A DNA stretch of 64,000 nucleotides from a phage, in the sequence record PX880099.1; one strand, 5' to 3'. Positions 55,933-62,705 of this stretch are shown here, one piece after another (positions within the stretch are counted from its first letter, which is position 1; each line of letters starts with the position of its first letter). The notes beneath the pieces were generated by a model. It was given only the letters and a program-made list of their open reading frames with translations, did no database searches and had not been told where the DNA came from. Made by a program: the position numbers and the translations under genes.

Positions 55933-56403
55933 TTAAGCTGGCATGATTAAAAAAGAACTTTCCACTTCAAAATGCCAATCATCAACAAGCCCTGATTCCC
56001 AATCCTTCTCTTCATGGAAAGAGCAAATCCAACGATACATACCTGGCGGTGTATTCTCAACATCTTCTGGCAACCCATAATCCAAAGCTGTCTTACCGTT
56101 CTCTGTAAAACTAGGATGGAGATTAGGAGCTTTCAATACAGAAACCCTGCCTCCAACATCTACAGCCACAATCCACTCTGTCATGTATGGGCTGTCATAT
56201 TGAGGCTCATCAGAACCTACCTCAACAGCCTCTGTGCGTAAGATGATAATAGCCTGCTCTGTGATTGGGGCTTTGACAATATAACCGTGGTCCTCAAAAA
56301 GATCGATAACCTCGAACTCATCGCCGTTTTCGACACCATAACTCTTATTCAAAGAGATAAACTTCGGGTTATCATCGTAAGCTTTAGTTACTTTAATTCT
56401 CAT
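55933..56403 (-). CDS. hypothetical protein (156 aa)
   Basis: ORF. Confidence 0.5.
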   Translation of the reverse strand: MRIKVTKAYDDNPKFISLNKSYGVENGDEFEVIDLFEDHGYIVKAPITEQAIIILRTEAVEVGSDEPQYDSPYMTEWIVAVDVGGRVSVLKAPNLHPSFTENGKTALDYGLPEDVENTPPGMYRWICSFHEEKDWESGLVDDWHFEVESSFLIMPA

Positions 56404-56624
56404 TTTTCCTCCTTCACTTTAACCTCAAATTCTACAGGCTTACCCTCAATGTAAAAACACTGATACTCTGCCTTATCATCCTCGTCACGAGGCCAAGTTA
56501 CCAAGGAGTTATAGCAATCTTCTGGTGCTTTGAAGATGGTTTTAGTCTCCACAGTAACATTCCCATTAAGTGTTGCCAATACCACCCACCCAGCTACAGT
56601 GATCATAGTGCCTCCACTTTCCAA
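56400..56624 (-). CDS. hypothetical protein (74 aa)
   Basis: ATGA-coupled. Confidence 0.45.
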   Translation of the reverse strand: MESGGTMITVAGWVVLATLNGNVTVETKTIFKAPEDCYNSLVTWPRDEDDKAEYQCFYIEGKPVEFEVKVKEEK

Positions 56625-56785
56625 GTTTTACCATTATCAACCAAGGTCTTTGCTACAGCATACTCCTTCCCATTAACAAAGAAACAATAAACGATAAAAG
56701 ATTTCCCTATTGTTACTGTCCTAGTAACCTCTACGCGTTTAACACCTTGCATGTATTTTGCCTTACCGGAATAGAGCAAAATCAT
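56603..56785 (-). CDS. hypothetical protein (60 aa)
   Basis: ORF. Confidence 0.4.
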   Translation of the reverse strand: MILLYSGKAKYMQGVKRVEVTRTVTIGKSFIVYCFFVNGKEYAVAKTLVDNGKTWKVEAL

Positions 56786-57063
56786 TTTGCATTCCTCTTG
56801 TTGTTGATAACATCCATAGCAGTATATGGTTTATTAGTGCCATGATACTCCAGAATCATTGGAGAGCCTTCTTGCACCACTTCAAAGATACCATAGACAG
56901 AGCTTTCAGCAAATACCATTTGCTTCGTGCCTTCATCGTTTACAACGAGAGAAAACTTCTTGCCTGTCCCGTTGAGGATCTCATATTTCTTGCCAACAGT
57001 GAATAATCCAGAGTACCACTCACTATCTGTTGCTTTTACACACTTCAGGAAAGTCTTGATCAT
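56782..57063 (-). CDS. hypothetical protein (93 aa)
   Basis: ATGA-coupled. Confidence 0.5.
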   Translation of the reverse strand: MIKTFLKCVKATDSEWYSGLFTVGKKYEILNGTGKKFSLVVNDEGTKQMVFAESSVYGIFEVVQEGSPMILEYHGTNKPYTAMDVINNKRNAK

Positions 57064-57413
57064 TTCTTTTTGCTCCTCTTCTTAGATTTATCATACAAAC
57101 CTAACACAGCAGCCTCTTTTGCACAAGTAGGGACTGAAGTCATTCCTCTTCGCTTTGCATCGGGCAGGTTGAGCGTCCACCATCCGAACCAGTAGATTTG
57201 GTCTTCCGTGAGTGGTTCAGCCATTGGATCTGCCTCCTGCTCCTCAAGACGTTGCAACGCTTCTTCAATCTTCTCAATTGGTGTGTCAAAGACGAATGCC
57301 TCCGTATCAAACTTATCTTTCTTAGGAACTGATTTGGCTACTTTGAGAACCTCGTTTTTCGGTTTCTTAGTAACGTTCTTTGGCTTTGATAACTTCTTCG
57401 GTGTTTTCGCCAC
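57060..57413 (-). CDS. lysine-rich basic protein (117 aa)
   Basis: N-terminus AKTPKKLSKPKNVTKKPK; C-terminus KSKKRSKKK. Confidence 0.5.
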   Translation of the reverse strand: MAKTPKKLSKPKNVTKKPKNEVLKVAKSVPKKDKFDTEAFVFDTPIEKIEEALQRLEEQEADPMAEPLTEDQIYWFGWWTLNLPDAKRRGMTSVPTCAKEAAVLGLYDKSKKRSKKK

Positions 57414-57606
57414 TTACTACCTCCATGCGATCTAAAAAGTCATTCACAAATCTCCAATAACGTTGACCTGTTCTAAGATCTTCATAGATAACAACAGGAT
57501 CAAACACTTTAGATATTCCGGCAGGTTTTGGAAATTCCACGACCGTATATAAGCCACCTTTCGATACACAAGAATAGGTTACACCTGTAATTGGATATTT
57601 GCTCAT
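57367..57606 (-). CDS. hypothetical protein (79 aa)
   Basis: ORF. Confidence 0.45.
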   Translation of the reverse strand: MSKYPITGVTYSCVSKGGLYTVVEFPKPAGISKVFDPVVIYEDLRTGQRYWRFVNDFLDRMEVVSGENTEEVIKAKERY

Positions 57607-57797
57607 TTCTTTACGTACTCCATGATTGGGGTATGGTCGCCAGTGAGCGTCACACGGTTGTAGGAAACGTTTTGTGTCTTCAACGTCTCAACCCATTCCA
57701 GGAAATGTTCTTTCGCTTCTGTGTAGTTCTGGGTGCCTTTAACAACATGAATATCATCCAGGGTGACACGGAATACCATTTGAATAACGTCTTTCAT
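57603..57797 (-). CDS. hypothetical protein (64 aa)
   Basis: ATGA-coupled. Confidence 0.45.
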   Translation of the reverse strand: MKDVIQMVFRVTLDDIHVVKGTQNYTEAKEHFLEWVETLKTQNVSYNRVTLTGDHTPIMEYVKK

Positions 57798-57893
57798 TTC
57801 TTACCTCCTTTGTTGTCAAAATAGCTTACCAGAACATCGTGAACCACACAAATGGCGAAAATCAGAACAATTGTTGCCAGGACTGGGTGCTCA

Positions 57894-58217
57894 CTAATTA
57901 GTGCTATCATCTTTAACTACCTCCAGTTGCCTTTCGAGTTTAACTTTGTTTGAGAACTGATAATGACACAGCTTACAATCAATGTCAACAATCTGATCGT
58001 GATTTAACCCTACAATTTTAACTTCCTTTGCACCATCCCACTCTAAGTATTCGAAGTCTGATAAACAACTACTCTTACTTAAAATAAAATCCACCTGTTT
58101 CCACTCCACCTGCATATCATCGATATGATAAGCTGCACAGAATACATCATGGTAGTAAAATGCTATCATAACCATCTTTTCATCAACAGCAACTACTTCC
58201 CGCCTTGTAAATCTCAT
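57894..58217 (-). CDS. hypothetical protein (107 aa), first gene of leftward block
   Basis: SD AGGAGG before ATG on reverse strand. Confidence 0.55.
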   Translation of the reverse strand: MRFTRREVVAVDEKMVMIAFYYHDVFCAAYHIDDMQVEWKQVDFILSKSSCLSDFEYLEWDGAKEVKIVGLNHDQIVDIDCKLCHYQFSNKVKLERQLEVVKDDSTN

Positions 58218-58470
58218 TCTAGCCTCCTAAACGCGTCTCTGACGCACTTTTTATATATAAGATGATAAATCACCTTACCTCATAAGTAAACTTGCTCCAC
58301 GAGCCTCTTATGAAGCTTACGTCATAGGTTATACTATTGCTACCTATTTAAGCAAGTTTTTGCACACAGAAAATAATTTTTAATAAAACTCTTGACTTTT
58401 GTGTTCGAAGTATGCTACCCTAGAAATCTATTAACGAGCGCAGCGAGTTAAGGTTTTAGGTTGTTGATGT

Positions 58471-58505
58471 AGTACTCTGTACTCAAGTACTGTACTCCGT
58501 ACTAG
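58471..58505. repeat. tandem GTACT-containing iterons
   Basis: AGTACTCTGTACTCAAGTACTGTACTCCGTACTAG; further GTACAG copies at 58562-58585 and 58659-58668. Confidence 0.6.
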
Positions 58506-58506
58506 A

Positions 58507-58546
58507 TTAATAATTATTAAATATTCATAATAAATAATTATTAGAT
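58507..58546. repeat. AT-rich block with AATAATTATT direct repeats
   Basis: AATAATTATT at 58509 and 58535. Confidence 0.5.
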
Positions 58547-58636
58547 CTAACAAATAGGTACAGTGTATCAGAACTGGTATGTACAGATCAACTTCTATCA
58601 ATTAAAAATAAAATAATAAATTATTATAAATAATAC

Positions 58637-58665
58637 TTGATTTATAGATTAGTATGAAGTACAGT
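58637..58665 (+). promoter_or_regulatory. rightward sigma70-like promoter (TTGATT-17-TACAGT)
   Basis: TTGATT 58637-58642; TACAGT 58660-58665; 33 nt before ATG 58698. Confidence 0.4.
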
Positions 58666-58697
58666 ACGAAACATCTTAACAAGAATGGAGGTGTGCA

Positions 58698-58883
58698 ATG
58701 ATTAGTGAGAATCCGTGCAAATGGCATCATGTGCCTATTAAAGATTGTATGTCTTGTAATCCACGTTCTATTTATAACATTGCATCTTATGACGATGACA
58801 ATGTGTTAGACGATGATGAAGGCTGGGAGGATTTAGATTGGACTGGTTATGAAACCAAAAAGGATAAAATTATTCCTAGTTGA
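58698..58883 (+). CDS. hypothetical Cys-containing acidic protein (61 aa)
   Basis: SD GGAGGTGTGCAATG. Confidence 0.5.
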   Translation: MISENPCKWHHVPIKDCMSCNPRSIYNIASYDDDNVLDDDEGWEDLDWTGYETKKDKIIPS

Positions 58884-58920
58884 CTTAAGATATCCTTCGT
58901 GCTAAACTAGAAGTGAGGAG

Positions 58921-59172
58921 ATGCCGATCACTCCCCATTTGGGGTTCGAAGGATATATGCAAAATAGCTTTTATTTTAGGTGCCGTGCTTGTAATAGGCA
59001 TTTGACAAACCACTCCAGACGTGATAAAAATGGAGTCATCAAGGAATCAGACCTCTGTTCTATTTGCACAGGTTTGGCTTTTGATGATAGTCCCGAAAGG
59101 GTTTATCAGCATCAATGTATAACAGACGTTCTCGTGTCAAACTTGGTAGAGGACGAACAACTAACAGATTAG
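58921..59172 (+). CDS. zinc-finger protein (83 aa)
   Basis: CRACNRH...CSICTG; SD GAGGAGATG. Confidence 0.5.
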   Translation: MPITPHLGFEGYMQNSFYFRCRACNRHLTNHSRRDKNGVIKESDLCSICTGLAFDDSPERVYQHQCITDVLVSNLVEDEQLTD

Positions 59173-59180
59173 GAGGAACA

Positions 59181-59429
59181 ATGTCTCTATTAGAAAAACA
59201 CGTGTTTGAAGATGGTAACGGCAATGCAGTTTTTCTTTTCCATCCAGAAAAATACACATCTGAAAACAATGGTACAACTTCTATTGTAATCACTAAAGAT
59301 GTTAAAGTTATTGATTTCTTGGCTCTGATGCGAGAGATGGATCTTGAAATTAATACTTTTAACGCAGAAGCTTTGGTTGTTGCTCTTCTGGAAAAGAAAG
59401 ATAGTGAAGAAGTAGCAGAATATGCTTAA
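59181..59429 (+). CDS. hypothetical protein (82 aa)
   Basis: ATG 59181 after SD AGGAGG. Confidence 0.5.
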   Translation: MSLLEKHVFEDGNGNAVFLFHPEKYTSENNGTTSIVITKDVKVIDFLALMREMDLEINTFNAEALVVALLEKKDSEEVAEYA

Positions 59430-59436
59430 ATAACTA

Positions 59437-59466
59437 TTGACAAACGTATCCTTCATATGTTAGGAT
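59437..59466 (+). promoter_or_regulatory. promoter, tRNA-cluster type (TTGACA-N11-ATGTTAGGAT)
   Basis: TTGACA 59437-59442; shares ATGTTAG(R) downstream element with promoters at 60025 and 61189. Confidence 0.5.
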
Positions 59467-59479
59467 ACGTTCATCAAGT

Positions 59480-59670
59480 GTGGTAACAGGGTCGTTGACT
59501 TTTGTTAAGAGGGGCTTGCACTGCGGATAGTGTTAGAGACTACTTCTTCAGAGGTTAGCTACCAAAGAGGAAAAGGAATAGTCTCGGCTCAAGAACTTTT
59601 ACGCTGAAAGTTGGGCTTGGTCTTAGAGAATGTAGCGGTTCTCTACAATCGTCAGCGTCTCTGTTACCAC
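59480..59670 (+). ncRNA. candidate structured small RNA / tRNA precursor leader
   Basis: GTGGTAACAG (59480-59489) is the exact reverse complement of CTGTTACCAC (59661-59670); internal stem GAGACTA/TAGTCTC (59536/59579); no ORF; sits between promoter 59437 and tRNA-Met. Confidence 0.35.
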
Positions 59671-59676
59671 ATTTAT

Positions 59677-59751
59677 GGCCCTGTAGCTCAATGGGAGAGC
59701 TGTCGGCTCATAACCGATAGGTAGCTGGATCGAAACCAGCCAGGGCCACCA
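59677..59751 (+). tRNA. tRNA-Met (CAT), elongator type or Ile-lysidine
   Basis: Hand-folded cloverleaf: acceptor GGCCCTG/CAGGGCC, anticodon loop CTCATAA, T-arm GCTGG-ATCGAAA-CCAGC, CCA encoded. Confidence 0.75.
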
Positions 59752-59753
59752 AC

Positions 59754-59828
59754 GTCTTTATGGTGTAATGGATAGCACAGGAGTCTTCTAAACTCTTAGT
59801 CAAGGTTCGATTCCTTGTAAAGACACCA
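59754..59828 (+). tRNA. tRNA-Arg (TCT)
   Basis: Acceptor GTCTTTA/TAAAGAC, anticodon loop CTTCTAA, T-arm CAAGG-TTCGATT-CCTTG, CCA encoded. Confidence 0.75.
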
Positions 59829-60024
59829 GAACATTTTAACATGAATTAGCTCAAGTGATTTGAACCCACTACTGATCATGGTGGCAGAGAATGAGGCAAG
59901 TATGTCAGAAATTATAAACAAAGGCCACGGTTATATTAGAAGACATAAATGCTCGAAGAGCACCGTTCGTGGAGAACGGGGGTTGGTGGAGTCACCATTC
60001 ATGGTAAAATGTTTTAAAAAACTA

Positions 60025-60059
60025 TTGACAACAAACATTATTTTATGTTAGATTATAAG
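60025..60059 (+). promoter_or_regulatory. promoter, tRNA-cluster type (TTGACA-N11-ATGTTAGATT)
   Basis: TTGACA 60025-60030; ATGTTAGAT 60045-60053. Confidence 0.5.
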
Positions 60060-60062
60060 TAT

Positions 60063-60153
60063 GGAAGGGCAAATCGACGTGGCGACGAAAACGGTCTTGA
60101 AAACCGCCGAGCTTGAAAGAGCCTTGGGAGTTCGACTCTCCCTCCTTCCGCCA
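60063..60153 (+). tRNA. tRNA-Ser (TGA), long variable arm, atypical D-arm
   Basis: Acceptor GGAAGGG/TCCTTCC, discriminator G, anticodon arm ACGGT-CTTGAAA-ACCGC like E. coli Ser-UGA, T-arm GGGAG-TTCGACT-CTCCC; D-stem could not be paired by hand. Confidence 0.55.
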
Positions 60154-60158
60154 GATTA

Positions 60159-60244
60159 GGTAGATTGGTGAAATGGTAGCCACAACAGTTTGCTAAACTG
60201 TAGTCGGAAACGGCGTGTAGGTTCGAGTCCTACATCTACCGCCA
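60159..60244 (+). tRNA. tRNA-Ser (GCT), type II
   Basis: Acceptor GGTAGAT/ATCTACC, anticodon loop TTGCTAA, long variable arm, T-arm GTAGG-TTCGAGT-CCTAC. Confidence 0.75.
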
Positions 60245-60415
60245 AGTTATCTTTAATGTAGCTTGTTGCTCTTAGTTGCTTGGTGTAACTTTTTGGAAGG
60301 ATGGCTGCAACCATCTTACTTTAATAGAGTAAACTTTCGGCAGATGGCCCCCACCATCTTACCGATACCTCATAGTCAGTGGTGCGAACACTGGCTATTT
60401 TAAAGATAATTTTAT

Positions 60416-60490
60416 ACATCGTTAGCCAAGCGGTAAGGCACTTGACTTTTAATCAAGGGAGCGAAGGTTCGAATCCTTCACGATGTACCA
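60416..60490 (+). tRNA. tRNA-Lys (TTT)
   Basis: Acceptor ACATCGT/ACGATGT, anticodon arm CTTGA-CTTTTAA-TCAAG, T-arm GAAGG-TTCGAAT-CCTTC. Confidence 0.7.
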
Positions 60491-60495
60491 AACAC

Positions 60496-60582
60496 GTAGG
60501 TATCGCATAGCGGCAATTGCTGGAGACTGTAAATCTCCTGCCCTTCGGGGCTTCGTTGGTTCGAGTCCAACTACCTGCACCA
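60496..60582 (+). tRNA. tRNA-Tyr (GTA), type II
   Basis: Acceptor GTAGGTA/TACCTGC, anticodon arm GGAGA-CTGTAAA-TCTCC, long variable arm, T-arm GTTGG-TTCGAGT-CCAAC. Confidence 0.75.
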
Positions 60583-60589
60583 AATTAAA

Positions 60590-60674
60590 GATGGATTGGC
60601 CTAGTGGTTGGGCGACGGACTGTTAATCCGTGAACGAAAGTTCTAGCAAGGTTCAAATCCTTGATCCATCGCCA
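60590..60674 (+). tRNA. unusual type II tRNA with anticodon GTT (Asn codons) on a Ser/Tyr-like scaffold
   Basis: Perfect acceptor GATGGAT/ATCCATC, discriminator G, 3-bp D-stem GCC/GGC, anticodon arm ACGGA-CTGTTAA-TCCGT, 15-nt extra arm GAACGAAAGTTCTAG, T-arm CAAGG-TTCAAAT-CCTTG. Confidence 0.6.
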
Positions 60675-60753
60675 AATAGTGCTTGTAGAGTTAATAGAAA
60701 CCTCTAGAATTTTCTAGAATTGTAGATATCAAATCCTACCAAGCAAATATTTT

Positions 60754-60828
60754 GCTCCTATCGTATAACGGCTATTACGGTTGCCTTGTAAGCAACTTAT
60801 CAGGGTTCGAGTCCTTGTGGGAGCACCA
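60754..60828 (+). tRNA. tRNA-Thr (TGT)
   Basis: Acceptor GCTCCTA/TGGGAGC, anticodon arm GTTGC-CTTGTAA-GCAAC, T-loop TTCGAGT. Confidence 0.7.
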
Positions 60829-60850
60829 ATTTAACTCTAAAGGAGTGTAT

Positions 60851-61174
60851 GTGACAGAAAAAGAGTTAGAGAAATATTTTAATATCAATGTTTTCGATGG
60901 TTTTGATGATATTGAAGATGTTGAAAGATATTATGAAGTAGAGTTAGATAAGGATAACATTGTAATTCTTTCTGCCACTTATGATTGTGCATATTATGAA
61001 GGTGAATCTCACGTTTATTTCTATGATATGAAAACATCTTTGTTTTATGAAGTACACGCATATCATTGTTCTTGTTATGGCTTAGAAGGTCAGTGGGAAC
61101 CTGAAGAAATAGGTGATTTGAGCTTTACGGTTGCATATCTAAACAGACGTGGTGCATCTACTATTTTAAAATAA
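60851..61174 (+). CDS. hypothetical protein inside tRNA cluster (107 aa, GTG start)
   Basis: SD TAAAGGAG then GTG 60851; track ORF (from TTG 60752) trimmed because it overlaps tRNA-Thr. Confidence 0.5.
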   Translation: MTEKELEKYFNINVFDGFDDIEDVERYYEVELDKDNIVILSATYDCAYYEGESHVYFYDMKTSLFYEVHAYHCSCYGLEGQWEPEEIGDLSFTVAYLNRRGASTILK

Positions 61175-61188
61175 ATATTAAAAGCCTC

Positions 61189-61218
61189 TTGACAAAGGGG
61201 CTAATAATATGTTAGAGT
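61189..61218 (+). promoter_or_regulatory. promoter, tRNA-cluster type (TTGACA-N11-ATGTTAGAGT)
   Basis: TTGACA 61189-61194; ATGTTAGAG 61209-61217. Confidence 0.5.
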
Positions 61219-61229
61219 AATATTGTTAA

Positions 61230-61304
61230 GCGGGTATAGTGTTAATGGTAGCATATGAGGTTTCCACCCTCCAGGTGCAGGTTCAAGTCCTGTTACTCGC
61301 TCCA
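61230..61304 (+). tRNA. tRNA-Gly (TCC)
   Basis: Acceptor GCGGGTA/TACTCGC, discriminator T, anticodon loop TTTCCAC, T-loop TTCAAGT. Confidence 0.7.
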
Positions 61305-61404
61305 AGATTATTTAAATGGAATCGCTAGAGAAAATTTCTCTTTTCGCTCATGGTTTTCTCCTTCAAACTCTAGCGGTTCTTTTTAAGTGATTTTTTAGTT
61401 TTAT

Positions 61405-61479
61405 TGGAGATTAGCCTAGTGGGAAGGCAACGGCCTTTGAAGTCGTGATGACTAGGTTCGATTCCTAGATCTCCAGCCA
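61405..61479 (+). tRNA. tRNA-Gln (TTG)
   Basis: Acceptor TGGAGAT/ATCTCCA (U1-A72 as in E. coli Gln), discriminator G, anticodon loop CTTTGAA, T-arm CTAGG-TTCGATT-CCTAG. Confidence 0.7.
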
Positions 61480-61486
61480 ATATTTA

Positions 61487-61562
61487 CAGTGCGTAGCGCA
61501 GTTGGTAGCGTGGGAGCTTTGGACGCTTCAGGTCGCAGGTTCGAGTCCTGCCGCACTGACCA
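61487..61562 (+). tRNA. tRNA-Pro (TGG)
   Basis: Acceptor CAGTGCG/CGCACTG (C1-G72), anticodon arm GGAGC-TTTGGAC-GCTTC, T-arm GCAGG-TTCGAGT-CCTGC. Confidence 0.75.
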
Positions 61563-61567
61563 AATTT

Positions 61568-61642
61568 GCAGAGATAGCTGAGACGGATTAGTGCTACCCT
61601 GAAAAGGTAGAAAGGATGGATCGTTACCATCTCTCTGCACCA
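61568..61642 (+). tRNA. tRNA-Phe (GAA), non-canonical T-loop
   Basis: Acceptor GCAGAGA/TCTCTGC, anticodon arm CTACC-CTGAAAA-GGTAG, T-arm GATGG-ATCGTTA-CCATC. Confidence 0.6.
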
Positions 61643-61719
61643 AATAACACCATCCAAGGAGTAGACTTGGTTAACTGTCAATAGCACATTGAGGCTTCTT
61701 ACAGTGGTGTACTTATTAT

Positions 61720-61804
61720 GGCTAAGTGGTGGAATGGTATACACGATACGCTTAGAACGTATTGCCCCAAGGGATTGTGAGTTCGAGTCTCACCTTAGCT
61801 ACCA
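61720..61804 (+). tRNA. tRNA-Leu (TAG), type II
   Basis: Acceptor GGCTAAG/CTTAGCT, discriminator A, anticodon arm ATACG-CTTAGAA-CGTAT, long variable arm, T-arm GTGAG-TTCGAGT-CTCAC. Confidence 0.7.
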
Positions 61805-61819
61805 AATTATTAGATGTTT

Positions 61820-61898
61820 CGCGGGATAGAGGAGTCTGGTCGTCCTCGCCAGTTTCATATGCTGGAGATCGTTGGTTCAAATCCAACTCCCGTTACCA
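61820..61898 (+). tRNA. initiator-like tRNA-fMet (CAT)
   Basis: 5' CGCGGGA like E. coli initiator CGCGGGG; 1:72 mismatch (C/U); A11:U24 in D-stem; anticodon loop TTCATAT; T-arm GTTGG-TTCAAAT-CCAAC. Confidence 0.55.
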
Positions 61899-61917
61899 AA
61901 TTTTGCAAGGAGATAAA

Positions 61918-62331
61918 GTGACAGCCAAGAAATCAGCCCAGTTGGGAATGAACGTAAGTACCGCTACGGGCAGGTTAACAAAAGATATAATGTGGCGACT
62001 GATCGTTCAGACAAATCAGAACATGTGCTTTCATTGCGGTAAAGAAATGACGAGAGAAGACTTCTCCATCGAGCACAAAGTTCCTTGGTTGGATAGTGAA
62101 AACCCACAAGACTTATTTTTTGACTTGGACAATATTGCTTTCAGTCACTTATCCTGTAATGTTGCCGCAGCACGTAAGCCGAACAAAGGTATTATTCCTC
62201 ATGGAACATCATCAGGATATGATACTCACAAATGTAGGTGTGATGCATGCAAAGCAGCAAAAGCTGCAAGACGTAAAAAAGAATACACACCAGAAAAGCG
62301 CAGAGCAACTTACGAGCGTACTGGTAAATAG
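61918..62331 (+). CDS. HNH homing-endonuclease-like protein inside tRNA cluster
   Basis: CFHCGKEM...IEHKVPW...NIAFSHLSCN; GTG 61918 after SD AGGAG; track ORF (from 61762) trimmed because it overlaps tRNA genes. Confidence 0.65.
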   Translation: MTAKKSAQLGMNVSTATGRLTKDIMWRLIVQTNQNMCFHCGKEMTREDFSIEHKVPWLDSENPQDLFFDLDNIAFSHLSCNVAAARKPNKGIIPHGTSSGYDTHKCRCDACKAAKAARRKKEYTPEKRRATYERTGK

Positions 62332-62336
62332 ATAAT

Positions 62337-62419
62337 AGCCGGGTAGATTTAAAAGAGTATGGTACTCAATATGGCTCCAAACCATAGATCAGGGGGTTCG
62401 ATTCCTCACCTTGCTGCCA
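62337..62419 (+). tRNA. tRNA-Trp (CCA)-like, irregular (possible pseudo-tRNA)
   Basis: Anticodon arm TATGG-CTCCAAA-CCATA matches E. coli Trp loop; T-arm GGGGG-TTCGATT-CCTCA; acceptor AGCCGGG/CCTTGCT has 1 mismatch; extra nt between acceptor and D-stem. Confidence 0.35.
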
Positions 62420-62424
62420 ATTAT

Positions 62425-62500
62425 TGTGGTATCGTACAGATGGTTAGTACACTCGACCGATAATCGAGAAACAACGGTTCGACTCCGTTTACCACGACCA
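62425..62500 (+). tRNA. tRNA-Ile (GAT), C33 in anticodon loop
   Basis: Acceptor TGTGGTA/TACCACG, D-arm GTAC-AGATGGTTA-GTAC, anticodon arm CTCGA-CCGATAA-TCGAG, T-arm AACGG-TTCGACT-CCGTT. Confidence 0.55.
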
Positions 62501-62614
62501 AACTCCGTGCCAGCGGTGTCTTCGAAGAACAAGCCTAGTTCCTTCTAAGATGGAGGGGTGCGACTCCTTAACGCACAATCATAATAAAGCATTTCAAATT
62601 AACAGTATTTATTG

Positions 62615-62636
62615 GCCTCCTTATTGGAGGCTTTTT
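62615..62636 (+). terminator. rho-independent terminator GCCTCC-TTATTG-GAGGC + TTTTT
   Basis: Hairpin plus T5 immediately after tRNA cluster. Confidence 0.7.
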
Positions 62637-62705
62637 GCTATCTATTGAATAAAACTTGACTTATTATTTTTTATATGTTAAGATAAAGTTTAGGAGGATT
62701 TTATT

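Follow-up and report, generated by a model that had tools for sequence, protein, structure and literature searches.

The 64,000-nucleotide stretch of phage DNA analysed here (sequence record PX880099.1, referred to throughout as the window) carries an operon of 14 tRNA genes, as called by ARAGORN, and at the head of this operon, between a promoter and the gene for tRNA-Met, lies a segment of about 204 nucleotides that is the subject of this study. Over this region the window matches Escherichia phage KKP 3954 at 100% identity and phAPEC8 with its relatives at 98.6-99.5%; these phages belong to the genus Phapecoctavirus of the subfamily Stephanstirmvirinae. A first-pass annotation, made from the sequence alone, had described positions 59480 to 59670 as a structured, non-coding element free of open reading frames (ORFs) and closed by a perfect 10-base-pair pairing, and had offered two readings of it, an analogue of the small stable RNAs of phage T4 or a processing leader of the tRNAs. 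Here, we present evidence that the plus strand of this segment very probably encodes a functional structured RNA, whose fold is retained in related phages, and we weigh what such an RNA may do.

Results

Architecture of the RNA at the head of the tRNA operon

Homologues of the segment form three lineages: the window/phAPEC8 type, the phiWec181/PsgM04F type, and the IMG/VR contig L026 (153 kb). The promoter, the predicted RNA with its helices (P1 to P6), and the first tRNA gene are arranged as follows.

59437 to 59466, plus strand: sigma-70 early-type promoter; -35 element TTGACA at 59437-59442, 18-nucleotide spacer, extended -10 element TGtTAGGAT (TGTTAGGAT) ending at 59466
59473 to 59676, plus strand: predicted mature RNA, about 204 nucleotides, placed from promoter geometry, the tRNA start and the fold, with inferred ends
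59476 to 59499, plus strand: 5' strand of P1, AAGUGUGGUAACAGGGUCGUUGAC, identical in all three lineages (25/25)
59511 to 59515, plus strand: 5' strand of P2, which pairs with 59620-59624 and closes a four-way junction
59518 to 59533, plus strand: P3 hairpin; two pairs changed on both sides (C:G/U:A and U:A/C:G/A:U), loop variable in length and sequence
59536 to 59585, plus strand: P4/P4a arm; three pairs with compensatory or wobble changes, apical loop 59550-59566 (AGAGGUUAGCUACCAAA) invariant
59558 to 59563, plus strand: GCUACC in the P4 loop, candidate kissing partner of the P6 loop GUAGC/GGUAGC, 5-8 base pairs depending on lineage
59586 to 59617, plus strand: P5 hairpin (GGCUCA-AGA-ACUUUUACGCUGAAAGU-UGGGCU); one U:A/A:U swap, otherwise identical in all lineages
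59620 to 59624, plus strand: 3' strand of P2, partner of 59511-59515
59625 to 59644, plus strand: P6 hairpin; three pairs changed on both sides, loop flanks variable, GUAGC at 59632-59636 invariant
59651 to 59674, plus strand: 3' strand of P1, GUCAGCGUCUCUGUUACCACAUUU, ending 2 nucleotides before tRNA-Met
59677 to 59751, plus strand: tRNA-Met(CAU), with its ACCA end encoded; processing at its 5' side is expected to generate the 3' end of the RNA

The minimum free energy of 59470-59680 is -79.3 kcal/mol, compared with -56.2 +/- 4.2 kcal/mol for 200 dinucleotide shuffles (z-score -5.5), none of which folded as well; the predicted mature RNA alone reaches -77.2 kcal/mol (z-score -5.4). The reverse complement folds at -54.0 kcal/mol. 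Because this is 23 kcal/mol worse than the plus strand, owing to many G:U pairs, the structure belongs to a plus-strand RNA and not to the DNA. The 10-base-pair pairing of GTGGTAACAG (59480-59489) with CTGTTACCAC (59661-59670) is complementary as the first-pass annotation had claimed, and the claim was too modest, for this pairing is the centre of P1, a helix of 23-24 positions (59476-59499 with 59651-59674) that includes G:U pairs and one U-U mismatch (59492/59658). The internal stems that it had proposed are real as judged by the same shuffles.

P1 leads into a three-way junction formed by P1, P2 and P6, and P2 opens into a four-way junction with P3, P4/P4a and P5. A putative contact between the P4 and P6 loops, the two sides of which are invariant and so beyond the reach of covariation, would probably compact the core, and the palindromic UAGCUA of the P4 loop raises the possibility of oligomerisation. 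Visual inspection for K-turn, anticodon-loop mimicry and CsrA GGA-loop motifs found none conserved across the lineages. Eleven nucleotides at the end of the upstream gene (59405-59415) are perfectly complementary to P4 (59540-59550); the match is not conserved in the other lineages and was therefore attributed to chance.

The 5' end of the RNA is placed at the presumed transcription start A59473, possibly A59476, and its 3' end at the presumed RNase P cut before G59677. The tRNA-Met gene lies on the same strand and starts at 59677, 2 nucleotides past the end of P1, an arrangement in which the two must be co-transcribed, as proposed earlier.

Compensatory changes among three phage lineages

The window/phAPEC8 type comprises 65 isolates with at least 95% identity and the phiWec181/PsgM04F type six isolates with about 81% identity; two metagenome contigs fall into these two types. 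RNAalifold, applied to a plain MAFFT alignment of four sequences, gave 70 consensus pairs, of which 10 have changed on both sides and still pair. In model-fitted alignments of seven and 11 sequences, 99.3% and 98.6% of the cells are standard pairs, with 10 and nine doubly changed pairs, respectively, as against 0-2 doubly changed pairs and 39-46% pairing in a control in which the partners were slid by 1-3 columns. The compensations are spread across six helices (P2, P3, P4, P4a, upper P5 and P6). At the first pair of P2, for example, G:U, C:G and U:A all occur (98-100% of cells paired). Polymorphisms within the main clade lie mostly in loops. Structure prediction with covariation, which had been set as a check on the original proposal, thus yielded a 70-pair consensus with 9-10 doubly changed pairs across the three lineages, and compensatory changes maintain the fold in related phages, as the proposal of a structured non-coding RNA on the plus strand had implied.

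Sequence constraint is distributed unevenly along the RNA. Between lineages, the two strands of P1 are identical at 25/25 and 23/25 positions and core windows at 13-21/25. P1, the P5 hairpin and the P4 loop are invariant in sequence, and the other helices drift with compensation. Among the isolates inspected, only phAPEC8_ev052 (LR597654.1 63272-63477), the name of which suggests derivation from phAPEC8, exceeds one pair-breaking change in the RNA; it has two, C to G at 59487 in P1 and G to U at 59511 in P2.

Coding potential

The description of the segment as free of ORFs does not hold literally, since it contains frames of 25 and 37 codons; its substance, that the segment is non-coding, agrees with the pattern of substitutions. 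One frame has been annotated by others.

59530 to 59607, plus strand: 25-codon ORF, judged spurious

A few depositors have annotated a hypothetical protein here, and in PsgM04F and WPEC phages it is recorded as a coding sequence, so that in a few GenBank records the locus would encode a micro-protein of 25-34 residues. The frame is indeed open and of constant length in the three lineages. Purifying selection on the peptide was nevertheless not found when the window was compared with phiWec181 codon by codon: by our own count 10 of the 11 substitutions in the ORF are non-synonymous, and each lies in a helix whose partner has also changed, so that helix compensation explains every one of them. 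No adequate Shine-Dalgarno sequence precedes the GTG or ATG. We consider a micro-protein scarcely credible and, from these comparisons, regard the ORF as a by-product of a structured stretch free of insertions and deletions.

An improbable alternative: a DNA-level element

Inverted repeats bound the segment, sister lineages lack the cassette at exactly this junction, the operon contains an HNH endonuclease ORF, and GC skew changes sign at about 58-60 kb; a miniature transposon-like insertion, an operator pair, or a part of a replication origin near the strand switch might each produce such a picture. This explanation is contradicted by strand asymmetry, internal compensation and copy number. 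Three of the four arm mismatches are of G:U type on the plus strand only, the minus strand loses 23 kcal/mol, and six internal helices compensate. There is one copy per genome in 71 of 71 records, and none in E. coli chromosomes, plasmids or GTDB genomes. Moreover, the left repeat lies 46 nucleotides inside the cassette, behind the promoter. Of the hallmarks of a miniature inverted-repeat transposable element, inverted repeats alone are present; no target-site duplication is visible and multiple copies were not found. A DNA-level function is accordingly rated very improbable, if marginally less so than the micro-protein.

The locus itself lies about 0.8 kb to the right of the divergence point between leftward early genes and rightward genes. 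Within window positions 56000-60000 the GC skew flips sign and the cumulative skew reaches its minimum, at the place where gene direction turns from leftward to rightward shortly before the tRNA operon.

Distribution of the RNA

BLAST found the RNA in 71 phage records, at one place in each; these are the 71 Phapecoctavirus isolates, none of which lacks it. The gene immediately upstream (59181-59429, 82 residues) has homologues in 128 phage records, of which 71 are Phapecoctavirus; the number of RNA-bearing records equals that of records with a close (at least 60% identical) copy of this gene. The other 57 records, from phi92-like Justusliebigvirus and Citrobacter phage Tr1, carry a distant copy and gave no BLAST match to the RNA. 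In phi92, the upstream-gene homologue (44% amino-acid identity) ends ...TATGCTTAA, and tRNA-Met begins about 8-10 nucleotides after it with no such RNA in between. Three phi92-like IMG/VR contigs share this layout, the tRNA-Met of the sister lineage starting 8-11 nucleotides after the stop codon. In Citrobacter phage Tr1 an unrelated 92-nucleotide spacer separates the two genes, and the tRNA-Met of Seunavirus also lacks such a leader. The covariance model built from the RNA (R1) was negative on phi92, the Seunavirus region, T4, the three phi92-like IMG/VR loci and Citrobacter phage Tr1.

BLAST returned nothing at E<=1 from 20,395 E. coli records and no match in 72,556 plasmids. A scan of GTDB genomes with a P5 pattern gave 44 matches, none confirmed by the covariance model, and an exact 16-mer scan of IMG/VR (GGTTAGCTACCAAAGA) gave 21 loci, all chance matches, several of them in a coding motif that is repeated and tail-fibre-like; the tRNA-bearing contig L014 (155 kb) proved not to be homologous. 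An 18-mer scan with a P1 strand recovered one true homologue (L026) and three chance matches in coding sequence, and a gapped pattern scan of JGI metagenomes found two contigs only, both of known lineages.

The promoter and the operon

The TTGACA promoter that the first-pass annotation had noted upstream is present at 59437-59442 and is accompanied by an extended -10 element. With 0.06 occurrences expected, the window has five of the full pattern TTGACA-N15-TGnTAnnnT, three of which lie within the tRNA operon, and the promoter is therefore of a recurrent phage type. It is kept in the phiWec181 lineage as TTGACA...TGtTAAGAT. Two other operon promoters, at 60025 and 61189, have a tRNA almost immediately after them and no leader. 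Because sister lineages lack the RNA and these promoters lead straight into tRNAs, the first promoter and the RNA present themselves, on comparative grounds, as a self-contained, lineage-specific cassette that would be dispensable for tRNA expression.

The promoter itself is spanned by a dyad.

59437 to 59477, no strand assigned: dyad symmetry across the promoter, with 16-nucleotide arms 59437-59452 and 59462-59477 that are 88% complementary

The -35/spacer region thereby pairs with the -10/+1 region. Reading the sequences directly, we find that the phiWec181 lineage preserves the dyad by two double changes, AAACGTATCCT/AGGATACGTTT becoming AAGCGTGTCTT/AAGATACGCTT. The dyad could serve as an operator or form a hairpin in read-through transcripts. 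A spacer hairpin, ACAGCAT-tcttcggg-ATGCTGT, also occurs in the promoter that precedes tRNA-Met in Citrobacter phage Tr1 (L088 2798-2835).

The tRNA-Met at 59677-59751 is 95-96% identical to that of many T4-like coliphages and clearly diverged, with many mismatches in alignment, from that at the equivalent position in phi92; this pattern points to horizontal exchange of the operon head as a module. An HNH endonuclease ORF (61918-62331; PF01844, 24.5 bits) lies within the operon between the second tRNA-Met and tRNA-Ile and, together with the module differences between genera, suggests that homing-type exchange has a hotspot here. The promoter at 60025 is immediately followed by an aberrant tRNA-Ser(UGA)-like gene (60063-60152), which ARAGORN missed in the window and which scores 37 bits on the Rfam tRNA-Sec model (threshold 47); its counterpart is called as tRNA-Ser(TGA) in phi92-like loci and carries a pseudogene flag in the phi92 record.

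Other clamped spacers and a possible cis-acting leader

All the remaining long spacers of the operon likewise have ends that pair. Gap A (59829-60014, after tRNA-Arg) has an end clamp of about 17 base pairs, GAACAUUUUAACAUGAAU/AUUCAUGGUAAAAUGUUU, with one compensatory pair relative to phiWec181 by our own reading; its flanks are 92-100% conserved and its middle about 45%. It also contains a 49-codon ORF (59903-60052) with GAGG before its ATG and no Pfam match. Gap A is absent from phi92, which has a tRNA-like sequence there instead. Gap B (60245-60415, between tRNA-Ser GCU and tRNA-Lys; z-score -5.0) has a 16-base-pair end helix with two compensatory pairs; its inner hairpins are conserved across phiWec181, phAPEC8 and phi92, the copy in the window is longer by an insert of about 45 nucleotides, and a copy of these hairpins lies upstream of tRNA-Met in Citrobacter phage Tr1 (L088 2747-2800). 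Gap E (61305-61404, between tRNA-Gly and tRNA-Gln; z-score -4.9) is clamped as well, and in phiWec181 and phAPEC8 its interior is very different while the ends still pair. Clamped spacers thus appear to be a general feature, or design rule, of this tRNA operon; such spacers may serve to insulate the folding of the tRNAs or as sites for RNase III, and the leader may be the most elaborate instance.

These observations bear on the idea that the RNA is a cis-acting 5' leader of the operon, a self-contained fold that avoids mispairing with tRNA-Met and is discarded once excised, with P1 shielding the 5' end of the precursor or giving RNase III entry in the manner of the stems that flank rRNA precursors. 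The RNA is fused to tRNA-Met by a 2-nucleotide linker, and a helix of 23-24 base pairs is long enough for E. coli RNase III. The sister lineages argue otherwise, for their tRNA-Met follows the upstream gene at 8-11 nucleotides, or in Tr1 after the 92-nucleotide spacer, without a leader RNA, and so do the two operon promoters that run straight into tRNAs; the proposal of a processing leader made at the outset is weakened on both counts. An insulator or clamp, furthermore, needs no conserved four-way junction, invariant loops or 32-nucleotide invariant hairpin, the plus strand of the operon has no rrn-type boxA, and there is neither a terminator nor a ribosome-binding platform to regulate. We hold a cis-acting leader, the chief rival of the reading preferred below, to be somewhat unlikely.

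Comparison with known RNA families

The search against RNA families that had been proposed as a check matched none. Rfam 15 (4227 models) gave no match over 59470-59676 at gathering thresholds and none over the RNA at E<=10 when 1081 nucleotides were searched; with 211 nucleotides alone, the only match at E<=10 was an 11-nucleotide chance match to bxd_7 (E 8.5). In the literature searched, neither an account of this RNA nor a Phapecoctavirus transcriptome was found.

The nearest comparison is with rnaC and rnaD of T4, annotated as small stable RNAs of unknown function in the tRNA cluster. Like them, the RNA described here is a non-tRNA RNA on the tRNA strand of a phage tRNA operon, co-transcribed (promoter 59437-59466, then tRNA-Met) and presumably freed by the tRNA-processing machinery. 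The differences are substantial. A search of T4 69500-74500 with R1, filters off, gave only noise, with a best score of 8.5 bits at an unrelated site. T4 rnaC has a tRNA-like T-arm, CCGGGUUCGAAUCCCGG, whereas the Rfam tRNA model finds nothing in our RNA, which thus lacks the T-arm/acceptor end that would make it an RNase P substrate in its own right. The T4 RNAs are 119-139 nucleotides long and distal in their cluster; this one is about 204 nucleotides, comes first, and has its own promoter and an end clamp of 23-24 base pairs. The suggested analogy with T4 therefore stands as an analogy of place; relatedness, with nothing found at rnaC/rnaD and no T-arm, does not. The RNA can be assigned to the loose kind of non-tRNA RNAs in phage tRNA clusters and is unrelated to the T4 examples in sequence, fold, size and position.

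In E. coli, spacers of stable-RNA operons have functions of their own: 3'ETS-leuZ is a sponge of RyhB and RybB, RNase III stems flank 16S and 23S rRNA, and in rRNA precursors distant flanks typically join in long helices. Such spacers resemble the present RNA in being co-transcribed with tRNA or rRNA and bounded by processing enzymes, but they are short and simple (ETS) or just bracket a functional RNA, whereas here the bracketed part is itself a conserved multi-junction RNA. It could by extension be a base-pairing RNA or sponge derived from a tRNA precursor spacer, titrating or targeting a host or phage RNA through its invariant loops. Its origin as a precursor spacer fits, and the invariant single-stranded UUAAGA (59505-59510), the loop 59550-59566 and GUAGC of the P6 loop could be seeds. 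Neither strand of the 64-kb window, however, contains a complementary run of 13 nucleotides or more, and the three 12-mers found, against about 1.5 expected by our own estimate, are at chance level; the 11-nucleotide match to the upstream gene is not conserved, and the best loop partners are internal to the RNA (the P4 loop with the P6 loop). The BLAST search of 20,395 E. coli records at E<=1, which found nothing, does not operate at seed length. Such a role we judge improbable.

Other RNAs with a terminal helix share that feature and little more. 6S RNA, which binds RNA polymerase, likewise has about 100-200 nucleotides and a long terminal helix of both ends; the large central bubble of 6S, which mimics an open promoter, is not found here, the fold being multi-branched, P1 having a single U-U mismatch and RF00013 giving no match. 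Bacterial Y RNAs (YrlA), of the same size range, form a long terminal helix from their 5' and 3' ends, carry a tRNA-like module with a T-loop and bind Ro60/Rsr (PMC4201824). The terminal stem is present in our RNA; no T-loop, tRNA-like match or Rfam match was found. GOLLD and ROOL are ornate phage-associated RNAs of unknown function, often beside tRNA genes, with loop-loop contacts (PMC12286853); they are three to four times larger and come from Gram-positive and rumen lineages, and their Rfam models do not match this RNA.

For a riboswitch or other cis-regulatory platform, no terminator-like site is predicted in 59470-59680, the downstream gene is a tRNA, and P1 as modelled is far too stable for riboswitch-type switching. 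An rrn-type boxA (GCUCUUUAACAA-like, up to two mismatches) occurs 10 times in the window against 10.7 expected, and not at all in 59400-62650; the boxA-like CCTCTTAACAA at 59503-59513 was dismissed as lying on the wrong strand. The promoter-proximal position would fit an antiterminator of the HK022 put type, an RNA that binds RNA polymerase and acts in cis on the very enzyme transcribing it; sister-lineage phages transcribe a similar operon without the RNA of the window. From these comparisons, the RNA is a new, genus-restricted structured RNA gene that heads a phage tRNA operon.

Discussion

That the fold is selected is solidly supported, but the RNA is narrowly distributed and gives no sign as yet of a surprising mechanism. 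We lean, by a modest degree, towards an autonomous stable RNA rather than a cis-acting leader. Host RNA polymerase would start at the extended -10 sigma-70 promoter, 0-3 nucleotides before P1, making the RNA the first unit of the tRNA operon transcript. As in canonical tRNA maturation, RNase P would cut at the 5' end of tRNA-Met, 2 nucleotides past P1, and thereby free the RNA; more speculatively, RNase III might in addition trim P1, as it does the precursor stems of rRNA. RppH and RNase E, which sense 5' ends, and 3' exonucleases need an accessible end. Because overhangs of at most 3 nucleotides on a P1 of 23-24 base pairs would deny these enzymes a foothold, the RNA should be long-lived.

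Once released, the RNA may act in trans by engaging an RNA-binding enzyme of the host or the phage, as its decoy or scaffold, rather than serve as a leader needed by the tRNAs. Protein recognition is proposed because P1, P5 and the P4 loop are invariant in sequence while the other helices drift. Taken alone, the decoy or scaffold role is a tentative suggestion that we would not yet favour over its alternatives together. As a whole, the explanation that we consider best, an autonomous RNA gene of about 204 nucleotides, released by RNase P, with clamped ends and a trans-acting, protein-binding function, seems to us evenly poised between right and wrong.

Several points weigh against this explanation. 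Both ends of the RNA and its stability are deduced rather than observed. No partner protein has been identified: the neighbouring small ORFs belong to PHROG families of unknown function only and have no Pfam domain, and the narrow host and phage range offers no functional hint. That gaps A, B and E also pair both their ends fits a generic processing or insulating role. The covariation counts come from only three lineages, and hence from few independent substitution events, and related sequences without structure can still outdo shuffle controls, a known caveat of the tools. Lastly, because P1 never varies between lineages, it is backed by energy and invariance and not by covariation.

A more specific version of an RNA-protein interaction is suggested by adenovirus VA (virus-associated) RNA I, an RNA of about 160 nucleotides transcribed by RNA polymerase III, with a terminal stem of both ends and a structured centre, which is abundant early in infection and serves as a protein decoy. 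VA RNA I is from a eukaryotic virus and shares no sequence with the present RNA, so that it provides a working analogy and not a relative. By that analogy, an abundant, nuclease-resistant early RNA might use its invariant 23-base-pair helix and the P5 and P4 surfaces to bind and inactivate an RNA-directed enzyme or an immune sensor of the host; examples of such targets would be RNase III, a defence nuclease directed at tRNAs and an RNA-sensing cyclase. In a variant of this scheme, the RNA would assemble with itself through its palindromic loops, as ROOL and GOLLD do. We regard a counter-measure of this kind as a long shot, about on a par with the sponge and at best slightly ahead of it.

Phapecoctavirus phages are common sewage and gut coliphages and frequent candidates for therapy, and in the records inspected this region bears either no annotation or, mistakenly, that of a tiny protein. 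What non-tRNA RNAs do in phage tRNA clusters has been unexplained since T4 species 1 and 2 (rnaC/rnaD) were described. The present RNA, a second example that is unrelated to those and more elaborate, is tractable: it is naturally present in one genus and absent from its sister, its promoter is defined and its ends are clamped. Should the RNA turn out to be a processing device, it and the other clamped spacers would jointly disclose a design rule of phage tRNA operons; should it prove a decoy for a protein, phage takeover or anti-defence would gain a layer based on RNA; and if it acts in the manner of VA RNA, it would be an RNA-only anti-defence factor of a lytic coliphage.

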